DNA of 64,000 nt from Candidatus Doudnabacteria bacterium RIFCSPHIGHO2_02_FULL_42_25 (GTDB lineage Bacteria; Patescibacteriota; Doudnabacteria; UBA920; O2-02-FULL-48-8), in NCBI GenBank assembly GCA_001777665.1, contig MFEQ01000004.1:64679-128678 (forward strand), in the 5' to 3' direction. Positions 14,571-54,356 of this stretch are shown here, piece by piece. The notes under the pieces are model-generated. The model ran no database searches, had not been told where the DNA came from, and was given only the letters and a program-made list of their open reading frames with translations. The translations under genes were made by a program, and so were the position numbers. Numbering within the stretch: the stretch's first letter is position 1; each line of letters opens with the position of its first letter.

Positions 14571-14691
14571 TTTGGGCTTCGCTGATTTACTGCGGTTAAA
14601 CTGAAAACTAGGGACACACTGAAGTGCCCCTAGTTTACCAAGTATCGGTAGGGCTTGCAACTAGCATATTTTAAACAATTTCGAATCCTAT

Positions 14692-36569: not shown

Positions 36570-36645
36570 GCCGTTGTAGCTCAGCTGGTAGAGCAACTCC
36601 ATGGTAAGGAGTAGGTCCGCGGTTCAATTCCGCGCAACGGCTCCA
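36570..36645 (+). tRNA. tRNA-Thr (anticodon GGU)
   Basis: Cloverleaf folded by hand: acceptor GCCGTTG/CAACGGC, anticodon loop ATGGTAA, TTCAATT T-loop, discriminator U, CCA encoded. Confidence 0.8.
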
Positions 36646-40665: not shown

Positions 40666-40740
40666 GCCGAGATAGCTCAGTGGTAGAGCAACGCTTTTGT
40701 AAAGCGAAGGTCGGAGGTTCGAATCCTCTTCTCGGCTCCA
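40666..40740 (+). tRNA. tRNA-Thr (anticodon UGU)
   Basis: Acceptor GCCGAGA/TCTCGGC, anticodon loop TTTGTAA, discriminator U, CCA encoded. Confidence 0.75.
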
Positions 40741-43378: not shown

Positions 43379-43569
43379 CCAAAACCATCAAAAAGTATGA
43401 ATATTAATTGCCCAAAGAGTTTAACATATATAGCTTGTCTTGGCAACCCGTCTGCTTTGGAAAAACCAATATTAAGCATTATATATACACATTAAAATTG
43501 CTACGTATTTTATACAAATGTACAAAATAGAGTACAAAAAAAGAAGCCTTCGAGATTGCCTCGTAGGCG

Positions 43570-43773
43570 TTAACGCTTCGTGTAGGGTACGATACATCCA
43601 ATCGCGCCCAACAACAGTGCTAGAAAGACCAATCCAAGGATTAAGATTGACCCTGCATCGCCCACATACGGAACGAGTTTCGCCTCAAGTGGCGAAACGC
43701 TTTGCGAAGGTCCAGTGAAGTAAAGAAGCACTCCGGCAAGTCCCAGTAAAGTCCAACCAATCGTTTTCCTCAT
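43570..43773 (-). CDS. small membrane protein (2 TM), unknown
   Basis: AGGAAGAGGAGA SD directly upstream. Confidence 0.45.
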   Translation of the reverse strand: MRKTIGWTLLGLAGVLLYFTGPSQSVSPLEAKLVPYVGDAGSILILGLVFLALLLGAIGCIVPYTKR

Positions 43774-49329: not shown

Positions 49330-49383
49330 TTGATTTGAGTTTTTCTATTAAGCAAATTATATCATTTTTCATACCCATAGTCA

Positions 49384-49452
49384 CCCATCCCAGACGCCAC
49401 GAAGGGCGATCCGGGATCCACTTTATTGGACCCCGGATCAAGTCCGGGGTGG
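49384..49452. repeat. GC-rich hairpin repeat family 3 (ATCCCAGA..TCCGGGAT / ACCCCGGATCAAGTCCGGGGT)
   Basis: Two hairpins; the second is identical at 56330-56353. Confidence 0.7.
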
Positions 49453-49484
49453 TTTTTGCTCTCTGGCTTGGCTATAATGCAAAC

Positions 49485-52400
49485 ATGGCTAAAAAGTTTA
49501 CGCATTTACATGTTCATTCGCATTATTCCCTACTCGATGGCCTTTCAAAAATCGATGCGCTAGTTAATCGCGCGAAAGAACTGGGTATGGAAGCCCTGTC
49601 TCTGACTGATCATGGTGTCATGTATGGCATAATTGAATTTTATAATGCCTGCCTGGATGCTGGAATTAAACCGATAGTCGGAATCGAAGCCTATATCGCC
49701 CCTAGAACGCTCCAGGACAAAGAAGGTAAAATCGATTCTGATTATTTTCATTTAACTCTGCTGGCCAAAAATGATGCGGGCTATAAAAATTTGCTGAAAC
49801 TGACAACTATCGCTCACATTGACGGTTTTTACTACAAACCGCGGATTGATTTGGAAACTTTAAAGCAGCATTCGGAAGGTTTGATTTGTCTTTCCGGTTG
49901 TATGCGGGGAGAACTTTCCCGAGCTGTCATGAACAAATCCGAGACAGAAATTCAATCTGTTTTAAAAAAACATTTAGATATTTTTGGCCCGGATAATTAT
50001 TACATCGAGATTCAGCGAAATGGTAAAGGCTCAAACACCCAAGACGAGCGAGACAAAGAAAAACAAACGCAGAAACTGATCACTCTTGCGAAAAAAGAAA
50101 ATTTAAAACTAGTGGCGACAGCGGATTGTCATTATTTATACCCGGAAGATAGTGAAGCCCAGGATGTCTTGATTTGTATTGGAACCGGCAAAACCATCAA
50201 TGATCCAGATCGGCTGGACATGCGGGGCTGGGATCTGTCATTAAAATCTGAAGAAGAAATGCTAGAGCATTTCCAGGATATTCCCGAAGCTGTTTTGAAT
50301 ACTGTGGAAGTCGCTGAAAAATGTGATTTAAAACTCCTTCTCAATCAGCGATACTTTCCACAAGTCGAACTTCCGGCTGGCAAAACCTCTGCCGAACATT
50401 TACGAGACCTGACTTATGCGAAAGCAATTCCTTTCTATAGTAAAGATGGAGTCATTCCTGAAGAAATTCAAAAACGCATCGACTACGAACTCGATATTAT
50501 TATCAAAAAAGGTTTTGATACTTATTTTTTGATGGTAGCTGATGTCGTCGAAGGCGCTCATAAAATTGGGGCGATTACAAATACCAGGGGGAGTGCTGCT
50601 GGTAGTATTGTCGGTCGTATTTTAGGAATTACTAATGTCGACCCTTTATATTATGAACTGCCTTTTGAGCGATTTTTAACGGAACACAGACCGACTCCTC
50701 CTGATATTGATTTGGATATTGCTGACAATCATCGCGATGAGGCTATTGAATACATCACGAAAAGATACGGCCAAGATAAAGTTGCCCAAATCATTACGTT
50801 TGGAACGATGATGGCCAGGGCTGCTATCCGCGATGTCGGTCGTGCTCTAGGTGTTCCATACAGTAAATGTGATCAGATCGCCAAAATGATTCCTTTCGGG
50901 AAACAAGGATTCCACATGACGCTAGACAAAGCCGTGGATATTAACCCTGATTTGAAAGCAGCCTACGATAAAGACCCAGAAACGAAAAGAATTTTAGACA
51001 TTGCCAAAAGATTAGAAGGATGCGCCAGACACGCATCAGTCCATGCTGCGGGAATTGTTATCACACCTACGGCTTTGACTGACTATATTCCTCTACAATT
51101 TGAACCCGATGGCAATCGTACTATTACTCAATACGACATGTACGCTTTGGATTTGAATGCCAATGCCAAAGCAATTGGTGTGGTCAAATTGGATCTTTTG
51201 GGAATTCGCAACCTTTCTATTTTGGAAGCTGCGGTGCGGATAGCGCAGAAGCGCCATGATGTCACGATAGATATTTATAATCTCCCCCACCCGGATAAAA
51301 AAACTTTTAAACTACTTTCTGAAGGTCATACTTTTGGCGTGTTCCAAATGGGATCATCAGGCATGACTCGTTATCTGATGGAACTCCGGCCGAACAGTAT
51401 TTTCGATATCATGGCCATGATTGCCCTTTATCGACCAGGGCCGATGCAATTTATCCCCGACTATATCAAACGCAAACATAATCCACGACTGGTCAGTTAC
51501 ATGGATCCAGCACTCGAGAAAATTTTACATCGAACTTACGGAATTTTGGTTTATCAGGACGATCTCCTGACGATTGCTCATGATTTGGCCGGCTATTCGT
51601 GGGAAGAAGTTGATAAATTCCGTAAAGCTGTCGGTAAAAAAATTCCCGCCGAAATGGCCAAGCAAAAAGAAAAATTTATCAACGGTTGTATGCAAACTGT
51701 GAATTGGAGCAAAGATAAAGCTGCTGAAATTTGGGCTTGGATTGAGCCCTTCGCTGCATATGGTTTCAATAAATCACACTCCGCTTCCTACTGTGTCGTC
51801 AGTTATCAAACCGCTTACATGAAAGCCAACTATACTGTGGAATTTATGGCTGCTCTCATGACCGCTGAATCCGGCGATCTTCCCACAATATCCGAAGCTG
51901 TGGAAGAATGTAAAAAATTAAATATTGAAGTACTTCCTCCTGATGTCAATGAAAGTTTGGCCAATTTTACTGTAGTAGATGAGAGTCACATTCGGTTCGG
52001 ATTGTCTGCAATTAAAAATTTGGGTTCTGATGTGGTTGGGATTATTATTGAACAACGGAAACAATCTGGAAAATTCACCTCGATTGAAGACTTCGTCAAA
52101 AGAATTCAGACCCGCAATTTCAACAAAAAATCCTGGGAAGCCTTGGCCAAATCAGGAGCCTTGGATTCATTGGGCGAACGCAATCAATTATTAGCCAATA
52201 CTGAAGTTCTCCTAGAATTTGCCCGAAGCTTTGGGAAAACCGAAAACCAAGCATCTTTGTTCGGGGCTGAACTCATGCCTGCATCTGCACTCAAGCTTCG
52301 CGAAGTGGAAGCCGCGACCAAAAAAGAAATGCTTGGCTGGGAAAAAGAATTACTCGGCCTCTATGTCAGCGCTCACCCGATGGAAGAATATGTAGAACAA

Positions 52401-52916
52401 CTGAAAAAAATCGCCAAACCGATCAAAGAAGTGATAGAAAATAAAATCGCGAATACTACTATCGGTGGCATCGTAACTAGAGTTCAGAAAATCTTGACCA
52501 GAAAAGGCGAACAGATGGCATTCATCGATTTGGAAGATTTGGGAGGCCTCATCGAACTCGTTGTCTTCCCCGGGATCTATAACAAACACAATGACCTTTT
52601 AGTCGAAGGTAAAATTGTGCTGGCCACTGGAAAACTTTCTGACAAAGATGGAGAGCCTAAATTCCTAGTGGATGATATGCGAGAATTTGGACAGCAATCA
52701 ATTCCACAAGAACCACAGTCTGTGACTATCAAAATCCCAGAAGCTGCGACTGATGAATTATTTGCCCAACTAAAAACACTTTTTGAATCTGCTCCAGGTG
52801 ACATGAGCGTAAATCTCATGATCCGAGAGCAAAAAGTCAAAACACCTTTTCGAATCAACCTTGACGATGAGCTTAAGGTTAAAATCAAGGCACTGCTCGG
52901 GAACAATTTGCAATAA
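49485..52916 (+). CDS. dnaE: DNA polymerase III alpha subunit
   Basis: PHP HLHVHSHYSLLDG, polymerase core, OB-fold; TATAAT at 49473-49478; start MAKKF (the track's N-terminal extension translates the hairpin repeat). Confidence 0.9.
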   Translation: MAKKFTHLHVHSHYSLLDGLSKIDALVNRAKELGMEALSLTDHGVMYGIIEFYNACLDAGIKPIVGIEAYIAPRTLQDKEGKIDSDYFHLTLLAKNDAGYKNLLKLTTIAHIDGFYYKPRIDLETLKQHSEGLICLSGCMRGELSRAVMNKSETEIQSVLKKHLDIFGPDNYYIEIQRNGKGSNTQDERDKEKQTQKLITLAKKENLKLVATADCHYLYPEDSEAQDVLICIGTGKTINDPDRLDMRGWDLSLKSEEEMLEHFQDIPEAVLNTVEVAEKCDLKLLLNQRYFPQVELPAGKTSAEHLRDLTYAKAIPFYSKDGVIPEEIQKRIDYELDIIIKKGFDTYFLMVADVVEGAHKIGAITNTRGSAAGSIVGRILGITNVDPLYYELPFERFLTEHRPTPPDIDLDIADNHRDEAIEYITKRYGQDKVAQIITFGTMMARAAIRDVGRALGVPYSKCDQIAKMIPFGKQGFHMTLDKAVDINPDLKAAYDKDPETKRILDIAKRLEGCARHASVHAAGIVITPTALTDYIPLQFEPDGNRTITQYDMYALDLNANAKAIGVVKLDLLGIRNLSILEAAVRIAQKRHDVTIDIYNLPHPDKKTFKLLSEGHTFGVFQMGSSGMTRYLMELRPNSIFDIMAMIALYRPGPMQFIPDYIKRKHNPRLVSYMDPALEKILHRTYGILVYQDDLLTIAHDLAGYSWEEVDKFRKAVGKKIPAEMAKQKEKFINGCMQTVNWSKDKAAEIWAWIEPFAAYGFNKSHSASYCVVSYQTAYMKANYTVEFMAALMTAESGDLPTISEAVEECKKLNIEVLPPDVNESLANFTVVDESHIRFGLSAIKNLGSDVVGIIIEQRKQSGKFTSIEDFVKRIQTRNFNKKSWEALAKSGALDSLGERNQLLANTEVLLEFARSFGKTENQASLFGAELMPASALKLREVEAATKKEMLGWEKELLGLYVSAHPMEEYVEQLKKIAKPIKEVIENKIANTTIGGIVTRVQKILTRKGEQMAFIDLEDLGGLIELVVFPGIYNKHNDLLVEGKIVLATGKLSDKDGEPKFLVDDMREFGQQSIPQEPQSVTIKIPEAATDELFAQLKTLFESAPGDMSVNLMIREQKVKTPFRINLDDELKVKIKALLGNNLQ

Positions 52917-52944
52917 CCAATCTGAAGTCCTATAATAATCTTAA

Positions 52945-53110
52945 GTTTTTGAAAGCGATGCTTGTCCGCCGTAGCCTTGGCGGAGGCGGAAAACGGCTAC
53001 CAACCGTGGAGCTTTCTCGAGAACTTGCCTCGTTATGCAAGAAATGAAGATAAAGTTTTGGGTGGAAACGTCCTCCTGGACCCCAAGCATCAGTGCTTGG
53101 ATTTTTTATT
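52945..53110 (+). promoter_or_regulatory. candidate T-box (Thr) leader upstream of thrS
   Basis: TATAAT at 52931-52936, T-box-like GGGTGGAAACG at 53060-53070, terminator CCAAGCA-TCAGT-GCTTGG + ATTTTTTATT, ACC in CTACCAACC upstream. Confidence 0.35.
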
Positions 53111-53123
53111 AACCTATATAACT

Positions 53124-54356
53124 ATGAGCGAACAAGAACACGATCACAAAATTTTAGGACCGAAACTCGACCTGTTTACCTTTTCAGATGCAGTAGGCAA
53201 AGGGTTGCCGCTGTTTACAGCCAAAGGTGCCACAGTTCGACGGGAATTGGAACGCTTTATAGTCGATGAAGAAATCAAACGCGGCTACCAACACGTTATA
53301 ACTCCCGACATCGCAAAGCTGGATCTCTACCGTAAATCCGGACATTATCCGCATTACAAAGATTCCATGTACGCCCCGATCAAAGTCGAAGATGAAGAGT
53401 TTATGCTACGCCCTATGACCTGTCCTCACCACTTTGAACTTTATCTTCGCAAACCGGTAAGCTACCGAGAGCTTCCTATGAGGATCGCGGAGGTGGCAAA
53501 ACTTTATCGCTTTGAGCAATCTGGTGAGCTTATGGGTTTGCAGCGCGTTCGTAGTTTTTGTTTGTCTGATGCACATATTATTTGCGCGAGCGAAGAACAA
53601 GCTACTGATGAAGCTTCTCAAGCTCTAGATTTGATTGAATACGTAACGGGAGTGCTTGGTTTAACTCATGGGAAAGACTATTGGTACAGACTTTCTCTGG
53701 GTGATCGAAGTAACAAAGAAAAATATTATAAAAATGACGCGGCTTGGGAAAAGGGTGAGGAGTTGCTTCGACAAATGCTTCAAAAACGAGGTCAAAAATT
53801 TGATGAAGCTAAAGACGAGGCGGCTTTCTACGGTCCGAAAATCGATGTCCAGATGAGAAACGCAAATGGTAAAGAAGATACCGCTTTTACAGTCCAGTAC
53901 GACTTCTGCATGCCTGATCGATTTGATCTAACTTACGTAGGTCCAGACGGCGAATCGAAACGAGCATTTGTAGTTCACCGCTCCTCCATTGGCGCGATTG
54001 AACGAATCATGGCATTTTTGATTGAACGGTATGCCGGCGCTTTTCCGGTTTGGCTGTCCCCTATACAAGCCAAAATCCTGCCGATCTCGGATAAGCTAAA
54101 TAAATATGCTCAAGAGTTAACTCTAGAGTTAAAAAAACATGATATCCGGGTAGAACTTGATGATCGATCAGAATCAGTGGGCAAAAAAATCCGTGACGCG
54201 GAAATGGAAAAAGTTCCTTATATGCTAATCATCGGTGAAAAAGAAGCTAAAGCAAAAACTGTTTCTATCCGTGGCCGCAATCAAAGGGATCTGGGAACTA
54301 TGAAACTCGAGAACTTTATCAAAAAGATTTCAGACGAGATCGCAAACCGAGCATAA
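53124..54356 (+). CDS. thrS: threonyl-tRNA synthetase (catalytic + anticodon-binding core only)
   Basis: Class II motifs (CPHHFELYL, HRSSIGAIERI), about 410 aa without N-terminal TGS/editing domains. Confidence 0.85.
   Translation: MSEQEHDHKILGPKLDLFTFSDAVGKGLPLFTAKGATVRRELERFIVDEEIKRGYQHVITPDIAKLDLYRKSGHYPHYKDSMYAPIKVEDEEFMLRPMTCPHHFELYLRKPVSYRELPMRIAEVAKLYRFEQSGELMGLQRVRSFCLSDAHIICASEEQATDEASQALDLIEYVTGVLGLTHGKDYWYRLSLGDRSNKEKYYKNDAAWEKGEELLRQMLQKRGQKFDEAKDEAAFYGPKIDVQMRNANGKEDTAFTVQYDFCMPDRFDLTYVGPDGESKRAFVVHRSSIGAIERIMAFLIERYAGAFPVWLSPIQAKILPISDKLNKYAQELTLELKKHDIRVELDDRSESVGKKIRDAEMEKVPYMLIIGEKEAKAKTVSIRGRNQRDLGTMKLENFIKKISDEIANRA

Follow-up and report, generated by a model that had tools for sequence, protein, structure and literature searches.

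The 64,000-nucleotide stretch of contig MFEQ01000004.1 analysed here (the window) belongs to Candidatus Doudnabacteria bacterium RIFCSPHIGHO2_02_FULL_42_25, and the subject of this study is the leader of its threonyl-tRNA synthetase (ThrRS) gene, thrS, in which a preliminary description had noticed a possible threonine-specific T-box riboswitch. The host, described there as similar to the Candidate Phyla Radiation (CPR), is indeed a CPR genome (Candidatus Doudnabacteria); its ThrRS is placed in a 90%-identity cluster in which the GenBank members carry the name Candidatus Doudnabacteria (Rifle MAGs). The intergenic region at 52917-53123 separates dnaE (49335-52916) from thrS (53124-54356, +), whose ATG is at 53124. 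The TATAAT box previously reported ahead of the leader is present (52931-52936) and forms the -10 element of a sigma-70-like promoter (52908-52936, +), in which a -35 element TTGCAA (52908-52913), overlapping the end of dnaE, is found 17 nt upstream; 10 of the 12 promoter positions match the consensus. At its other end the leader closes with an intrinsic terminator (53083-53110, +), CCAAGCA-UCAG-UGCUUGG (53083-53100) followed by AUUUUUUAUU (53101-53110), with a 13-nt gap between the T-run and the thrS ATG. The terminator had thus been correctly placed before thrS, while its hairpin, previously given a 6-bp stem and a 5-nt loop, has a stem of 7 bp and a loop of 4 nt. Since a promoter search of the leader found no promoter-like site between the terminator and the ATG, expression of thrS must traverse the terminator.

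The T-box-like sequence noted immediately 5' of the terminator, AAAGTTTTGGGTGGAAACGTCC at 53052-53073, is there, and it opens into an antiterminator with the anatomy of a T-box discriminator core (53058-53086, +): helix A1 pairs UUGGG (53058-53062) with CCCAA (53082-53086), a 7-nt bulge UGGAAAC follows the first strand (53063-53069), and helix A2 is the hairpin GUCC-UCCU-GGAC (53070-53081). The 5' strand of the terminator (53083-53089) overlaps the 3' strand of A1, with 4 nt in common; the fold check suggested in the preliminary description therefore does reveal two alternative pairings, antiterminator and terminator, of canonical shape. The terminator together with A2 has a folding energy of -15.4 kcal/mol, versus -9.9 kcal/mol for the antiterminator alone: the terminator state is the more stable one, and the arrangement is therefore default-off, as a ligand-stabilised switch requires. 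When compared to the T-box consensus AGGGUGGNACCGCG, the window sequence UGGGUGGAAACGUC agrees at 9 of 13 specified positions. In known T-boxes Stem III is flanked as 5'-RRRxG-Stem III-AA-3' (PMC7583486); in place of this string the window leader carries a purine-rich linker (53042-53057, +), AAAUGAAGAUAAAG(UU), recognized by alignment. The purine string itself is present (GAAGAUAAAG), and AAUGAAGAU-AAAG-UUUUGGG leads directly into A1.

The rarity of this arrangement was evaluated with a shape descriptor that asks for a 5-bp A1, a 7-nt bulge beginning with UGG, a hairpin for A2, and a T-run preceded by a terminator of 6 bp or more that overlaps A1. Scanning the window on both strands yields a single match, at the thrS leader. 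In first-order Markov simulations the mean was 0.033 matches per 128 kb, with 5 of 150 simulations containing one, so that the chance of the full descriptor in a 190-nt leader is approximately 5e-5. Of antiterminator-like shapes without a terminator, about 4 per 128 kb are expected by chance.

In the 5' part of the leader, the specifier hairpin (52993-53007, +; ACGG/CUACCAA/CCGU) displays the codon ACC (52999-53001), followed by the purine A53002, in a 7-nt apical loop. This codon, carried by CTACCAACC at 52997-53005, had been put forward as a possible specifier, a choice that is strengthened by its position in the loop, by the adjacent purine, by its match to a GGU anticodon and by the wider class of leaders described below, whose loops nearly all contain ACC. 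The main form of that class has the same 13-nt hairpin tip, CGGCUACCAACCG, as its consensus. Both tRNA-Thr genes of the window end in GGC-U-CCA, that is, with U as discriminator base and an encoded CCA: the predicted ligand, tRNA-Thr(GGU) (36570-36645, +), has the anticodon loop AUGGUAA, and the second isoacceptor, tRNA-Thr(UGU) (40666-40740, +), has an anticodon that mismatches ACC at the wobble position. As had been claimed, the UGGA of the bulge is complementary to the UCCA 3' end (U73-CCA) of both tRNAs. The specifier ACC is in turn complementary to the anticodon GGU, and the pairing might comprise as many as 5 nt (UACCA with UGGUA). With regard to the relationship between UGGN and the discriminator base across genomes, no tRNA-Thr gene occurs in the 60 related loci scanned.

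Related leaders were sought upstream of thrS in 80 GTDB species representatives, those whose ThrRS is most similar to that of the window (64-78% identity); every one of them belongs to the Patescibacteria (labels Paceibacterota, Kaiserbacteria and similar). The exact core GGUGG(A/G)ACCGCG (GGUGGAACCGCG) lies 80-210 nt upstream of thrS in 14 of these 80 relatives, and 13 of the 14 have one common architecture. In this architecture a closing helix P1 (AUCAGA/UCUGAU) is followed by a GA bulge and a short helix UUG/C(U)AA, then by a specifier hairpin with a 6-bp stem and the 7-nt loop CUACCAA, and next by two variable hairpins, P3 and P4; the 3' part consists of the 3' strand of P1, a purine linker ending in RAG, Stem III, AAACUAGGUGGAACCGCGG and a long terminator that overlaps A1. 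In the main form of the class, the specifier hairpin and the two variable hairpins are nested within P1 as a four-way junction. This junction, with its GA bulge plus a U bulge, shows no evident kink-turn (K-turn), and there is no long Stem I platform. A K-turn at the junction was considered and ruled out, as covariation backs the pairing UCAGA/UCUGA with a GA bulge and not a 3-nt bulge with tandem G-A pairs.

A strict pattern of this architecture, run on metagenome contigs, returned at least 120 stretches, and at least 130 related thrS leaders, apparently unannotated, are found in Parcubacteria. Among the 120 matches listed, the loop codon is restricted to threonine codons (ACC in 116, ACG in 3; the remaining loop, that of locus L182, is likely a false positive) and is followed by a purine in 119 of 119; UGGA is the bulge sequence in 118 and UGGG in 2 (leaders with UGGG include L054 and L155); and a ThrRS gene lies downstream in 106, the other 14 having no more than 853 nt of downstream DNA. 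Covariation was assessed in model-based alignments of 99 elements against 500 shuffles; these alignments are fitted to the models, and some of their columns are invariant because the search pattern demanded it. Pairing in the discriminator helices amounts to 93.8%, and their double-change cells number 94 versus 36 in the shuffles, a value reached in none of the 500; for the decoding helices the figures are 94.4% and 247 versus 82, again with 0 of 500 shuffles reaching that value. Both A1 and A2 covary, and compensatory changes are seen in 4 of the 6 specifier-stem pairs and in 5 pairs of P1.

Stem III, preceded by RAG, is present in 77 of the 107 unique main-class elements among the matches listed and absent from the other 30 (approximately 28%). 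In the members without it, an A-rich linker of 19-29 nt (...AAAAGAACAAAG) with no predicted helix leads into A1; examples are L089:1872-1960, L105:6902-6985(-) and L095:760-839(-). Among the same listed matches, approximately 20 of the downstream synthetases are of the short CPR type and approximately 85 are enzymes of about 580 residues that have an editing domain and lack TGS. Two of these long forms were traced to Parcubacteria (GW2011_GWF1_40_6/Nomurabacteria, and Paceibacterota), and all of the 76 comparable long forms are 48-100% identical to one of the two.

Two loci depart from the common pattern. At L076:2860-2990 (GTDB representative CAYNQE010000011.1) there is a 'headless' T-box, in which a -10 box, TGCTACCAT, stands directly before the RAG-Stem III-antiterminator-terminator segment and no decoding domain was found within 300 nt upstream; this element would either sense the tRNA 3' end without reading the anticodon or be a degenerate copy. 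At L194, two main-class elements (534-664, +, and 830-966, -) face each other on a short contig, and this pair is probably an inverted-repeat assembly artefact.

Closer to the window, the sole divergent homologue found of its own subtype is locus L202, a 1.65-kb contig that starts inside the leader and encodes a ThrRS 82% identical to that of the window. The order of elements in L202 is GGCUACCAACCGCGGAGCUU...UAAAUGAAGAG-(Stem III UCCCCG/CGGGGA)-ACAAGGAUUUGGGUGGAACC-AUCC-GAGA-GGAU-CCCAAGCA-GAUG-UGCUUGG-UUUUUU; it retains the specifier tip, the GGAGCUU motif, the purine linker, A1 and the terminator of the window leader. Its T-box sequence, GGGUGGAACCAUC, has the consensus bulge UGGAACC, its Stem III region reads AAAUGAAGAG-(Stem III)-ACAAGGA, and its A2 (AUCC/GGAU) differs from that of the window (GUCC/GGAC) by a compensatory A-U to G-C change. 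Compared with the main class, the window leader is without the junction motifs GAUUG and CUAAUC, while the core GGGUGGAA is common to both. The leader is also identical in 10 contigs of the window population, which for this reason carry no covariation information.

The remaining features of the window leader are listed here for completeness. Hairpin A (52965-52984, +), UCCGCC-GUAGCCUU-GGCGGA, with 6-7 bp and -12.7 kcal/mol (z = -2.66), is part of the putative 5' decoding domain. Hairpin X (53024-53041, +), CUUGC-CUCGUUAU-GCAAG, with -4.9 kcal/mol (z = -2.54), lies outside the position of Stem III; a hairpin at a comparable position also occurs in L202. The 5' segment GAUGCUUG (52957-52964, +) can pair over 8 nt without a mismatch with CAAGCAUC (53084-53091), which comprises the 5' strand and loop of the terminator. 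This pairing appears in the minimum free energy (MFE) fold of the entire leader, and a rough estimate of its chance is about 0.01; it may be a second anti-terminator pairing or a product of chance. Three candidate closures of the 5' domain, 52943-52/53017-26 (from the MFE fold), CUUGU/GCAAG and GCUU/GAGC, were tried, and none was supported.

These results lead us to regard the leader at 52937-53123 as probably a tRNA-Thr-specific T-box transcription attenuator and a divergent member of a compact CPR thrS variant. The anatomy of the leader, its rarity by chance, its homology to L202 and to the main class, and the covariation, threonine-codon restriction and thrS linkage of that class are seen directly in the sequences; from what is established for T-boxes (PMC7583486, PMC11297988), we infer that the leader binds tRNA, senses its charging and sets the outcome of transcription in the following way. 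Transcription would start at the TTGCAA/TATAAT promoter, and by default the 7-bp terminator at 53083-53100 would form just before the thrS ATG and halt the polymerase. At low levels of threonine charging, the uncharged tRNA-Thr(GGU) would contact the leader at two points, its GGU anticodon pairing with the ACC in the apical loop of the hairpin at 52993-53007 and its free U73-C-C-A 3' end pairing with the UGGA of the A1/A2 bulge. The two contacts would stabilise the antiterminator, and read-through into thrS would follow because the antiterminator sequesters CCCAA, part of the 5' strand of the terminator. Charged Thr-tRNA would be unable to make the 3'-end contact with the bulge.

The proposal of a threonine T-box in this leader is on the whole supported, and of the three outcomes named in the preliminary description as jointly refuting it only one has occurred: the scan with the Rfam T-box model, RF00230, found no significant match. 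This and a number of other observations have to be set against the interpretation of the leader as a working attenuator. With a curated gathering threshold of 93 bits, RF00230 gives no match on the window at the gathering score, nor at E<=10 with 351 nt searched; L202 has none at E<=10 either. Three covariance models were built from the class, R1 (3' domain, 12 sequences), R3 (3' domain, 99 sequences) and R2 (5' domain). R1 and R3 do not find the window discriminator, and R2 matches only the 13-nt tip of the specifier hairpin, with an E-value of 0.59 for 128 kb. At just 4 bp (-3.6 kcal/mol), the specifier stem folds no better than shuffled sequences, as is also the case for the 5' domain as a whole (z = -0.69). 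In the discriminator, the consensus ACC at the end of the bulge is replaced by AAC; A2 begins with a G-C pair and not with the G-U wobble to which aminoacyl sensing is ascribed (PMC7583486), being GUCC/GGAC and not GCG/CGY; and there is no Stem III in the window leader, an element reported to be indispensable in model T-boxes (PMC7583486). Finally, only one divergent homologue of this subtype was found, cut at its 5' end, and the leader is absent from the closest relatives, whose ThrRS is 78-81% identical.

The comparison with orthologous thrS loci that had been suggested thus gives a divided answer. The leader is found in L202, in the 14 GTDB relatives and in the metagenome stretches mentioned above, and it is missing upstream of thrS in L201, L001, L208, L209 and L210; L201, for example, has an 81% identical ThrRS and the same dnaE-thrS-miaA synteny as the window, yet its locus is leaderless. 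From this absence in close relatives it follows that the T-box is sporadic in the window lineage. In the relatives without a leader (L201:1480-1503, L002, L003, L005 and others) a -10 box lies 6-12 nt before the thrS start, for example TATAATAAACCAATG and TGTGGTATATTCAGCAGATATG, a position that suggests that their thrS mRNAs are leaderless or nearly so.

Other outcomes of the covariance-model searches concern the class and its genomes. None of 40 related loci (20 from GTDB relatives and 20 from metagenomes) matches RF00230 at the gathering score, and in neither the window nor its relatives is anything matched to positions 1-149 of the model; one class member, L054, has a local match of 26.6 bits to positions 150-216, which correspond to Stem III and the antiterminator. 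On L202, R3 scores 9.5 bits (E = 1.4). R2 also matches the window at 43546-43640 (E = 0.33). An R1 match at 14606-14675 (-) of the window, CUAGGGGCAC-UUCAG-UGUGUCCCUAG followed by UUUU after a minus-strand gene, has no UGG bulge and is an ordinary terminator, and a match to the Rfam family suhB/mmgR on the strand opposite to the leader (17 bits, E = 0.37) was dismissed as weak. When the discriminator models were applied to loci L081-L194 and the window (773 kb), T-box cores were found only at thrS leaders; as no second T-box stands before another gene in this approximately 0.77 Mb of CPR DNA, these genomes may employ T-boxes for thrS alone.

Several of the adverse observations can also be explained by decay. 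According to this alternative, which we consider unlikely, the leader would be the relic of a T-box that no longer responds to tRNA, and its terminator would either attenuate transcription constitutively, with some leakage, or be counteracted by the GAUGCUUG/CAAGCAUC pairing. The missing Stem III, the AAC bulge, the non-consensus A2 and the 4-bp specifier stem are what a decaying element might be expected to show; covariance models lend the window copy no support; the 8-nt complement of the terminator is at hand in the 5' segment; and the complete loss of the leader from relatives with 78-81% identical ThrRS indicates that the T-box is dispensable in the window lineage. This alternative is challenged by the fact that codon loop, purine linker, A1, bulge, A2 and the terminator overlapping A1 are all still in register, and that UGGA and ACC still fit the tRNA-Thr of this very genome. 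Moreover, the terminator precedes an essential gene that has no alternative promoter, and since discriminators without Stem III recur in an otherwise well-conserved class (the 28% given above for the matches listed), the absence of Stem III is not by itself a sign of decay.

A different reading, which we hold to be very improbable, is that the region has another function altogether, either as a protein-binding operator, in which ThrRS would bind the hairpin as a tRNA mimic, or as coding sequence for an N-terminal extension or a leader peptide. In the thrS operator of Escherichia coli, ThrRS binds a mimic of the tRNA-Thr anticodon arm and represses its own translation. The window resembles this system in the feedback on thrS through a structured 5' leader and in the 7-nt hairpin loop, which has the size of an anticodon loop; however, the E. 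coli loop mimics the anticodon and binds a protein, whereas the window loop bears the codon ACC and not a threonine anticodon (NGU), is accompanied by a T-box bulge and has termination as its output. A coding role is brought up by public ThrRS calls that run through the leader, namely a 464-residue protein starting at TTG 52962 (P0001; P0361 = OGE74797.1) and one of 459 residues (OGF00100.1). A call of 410 residues exists as well, and homologous ThrRS proteins have 404-426 residues with starts that align with the ATG at 53124; because the homologues begin at this position, the longer calls are annotation artefacts that translate the leader. An N-terminal extension, which would have to include the terminator and its T-run, was rejected for these two reasons. 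The 410-residue ThrRS encoded from 53124 consists only of a class II catalytic core and an HGTP anticodon-binding domain, and has neither a TGS nor an editing (tRNA_SAD) domain. Leader-peptide attenuation was likewise discarded, since on direct reading of the sequence the only small open reading frame (29 codons, from ATG 52958) has a single threonine codon. Equally improbable is the view that 53083-53100 is the ordinary terminator of dnaE, accompanied by coincidental T-box-like motifs: the missing RF00230 match and the frequency of terminator-free antiterminator-like shapes (about 4 per 128 kb) would be in its favor, but it has to face the expectation of 0.033 matches per 128 kb for the full descriptor (about 5e-5 per 190-nt leader), a specifier tip common to a thrS-specific class, the conservation of the whole layout in L202, and a promoter that lies between dnaE and the hairpin while none lies between the hairpin and thrS.

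The interpretation of the leader as a T-box attenuator can be placed in the context of known systems. With canonical T-boxes (RF00230; Bacillus subtilis tyrS, thrS, glyQS) the window shares A1 and A2 with a 7-nt bulge whose UGGN pairs with the NCCA of the tRNA, an intrinsic terminator that overlaps the antiterminator and excludes it, a position upstream of an aminoacyl-tRNA synthetase gene, a specifier codon for the amino acid of that synthetase with a purine next to it, and a purine-rich string before the antiterminator; the main class shares in addition the exact GGUGGAACCGCG and, in L054, the match to positions 150-216 of RF00230. Unlike canonical T-boxes, the window leader and its class have no long Stem I, carry the specifier in an apical loop and not in a side bulge, and are without the interdigitated T-loop motif (IDTM) or AG-bulge/distal-loop motifs, an evident K-turn, or a recognisable Stem II or IIA/B; their scores are far under the threshold (26.6 versus 93 bits for L054, no match for the window), and the window differs further in its bulge UGGAAAC, its A2 and its lack of Stem III. 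Given a terminator, a short apical-loop specifier and, often, no Stem III, we file these leaders as a structural variant of the T-box kind that falls outside RF00230 as curated.

The one known precedent for a specifier in an apical loop is the short Stem I of ileS T-boxes in Actinobacteria, which are described as translational, with a sequestrator, a K-turn, a Stem II S-turn, a IIA/B pseudoknot and consecutive stems (Sherwood et al. 2015, as summarised in PMC7583486 and PMC10651847). The CPR class resembles these short or 'ultrashort' Stem I elements in having the specifier in the apical loop of a short hairpin, no platform for the tRNA elbow, and additional hairpins between the specifier hairpin and the discriminator; in contrast to them, it ends in a strong intrinsic terminator, is specific to thrS, and has its specifier nested within the four-way junction closed by P1. 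Neither an S-turn nor an F-box sequence was recognised in the CPR class, whose P3 and P4 are variable hairpins.

Somewhat more tentatively, and with rather less assurance than we attach to the window leader itself, we propose that this leader and its at least 130 relatives may constitute an unannotated, thrS-specific class of transcriptional T-boxes in CPR (Parcubacteria/Paceibacteria, Doudnabacteria), with an apical-loop codon, no Stem I elbow platform and no K-turn, and with about 30% of its members, the window leader included, lacking Stem III. T-boxes have been described in Firmicutes, Actinobacteria, Chloroflexi and Deinococcus-Thermus and, through scattered transfers, in other groups (TBDB supplement). 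TBDB itself derives from RF00230 hits and a class II model restricted to Actinobacteria, and its discussion of phyla is silent on CPR; full-text literature yielded no link of T-boxes to CPR, Patescibacteria or Parcubacteria, many subscription papers being outside the scope of that search. As the leaders score under the Rfam threshold, Rfam-based annotation and TBDB would miss them.

Such a class would have consequences for current views of tRNA sensing. Transcriptional T-boxes are held to need, in general, a long Stem I (PMC7583486), a rule that is contradicted by a class with terminator read-out, a short apical specifier and no elbow platform; likewise, the frequent absence of Stem III contradicts its reported indispensability (PMC7583486), and the class bears on the question, raised in the same work (PMC7583486), of whether T-boxes can dispense with a K-turn. 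If the proposal is true, these leaders would function without elbow platform and K-turn and, in part of the members, without Stem III, all treated as required in current structural work, and the class would be either a natural minimal T-box or one that uses new tertiary contacts or a protein helper. In CPR bacteria, whose gene regulation has been little described, these leaders would be among the few regulatory RNAs proposed, and studies of tRNA sensing, or attempts to engineer it, would gain from them a natural scaffold of small size.

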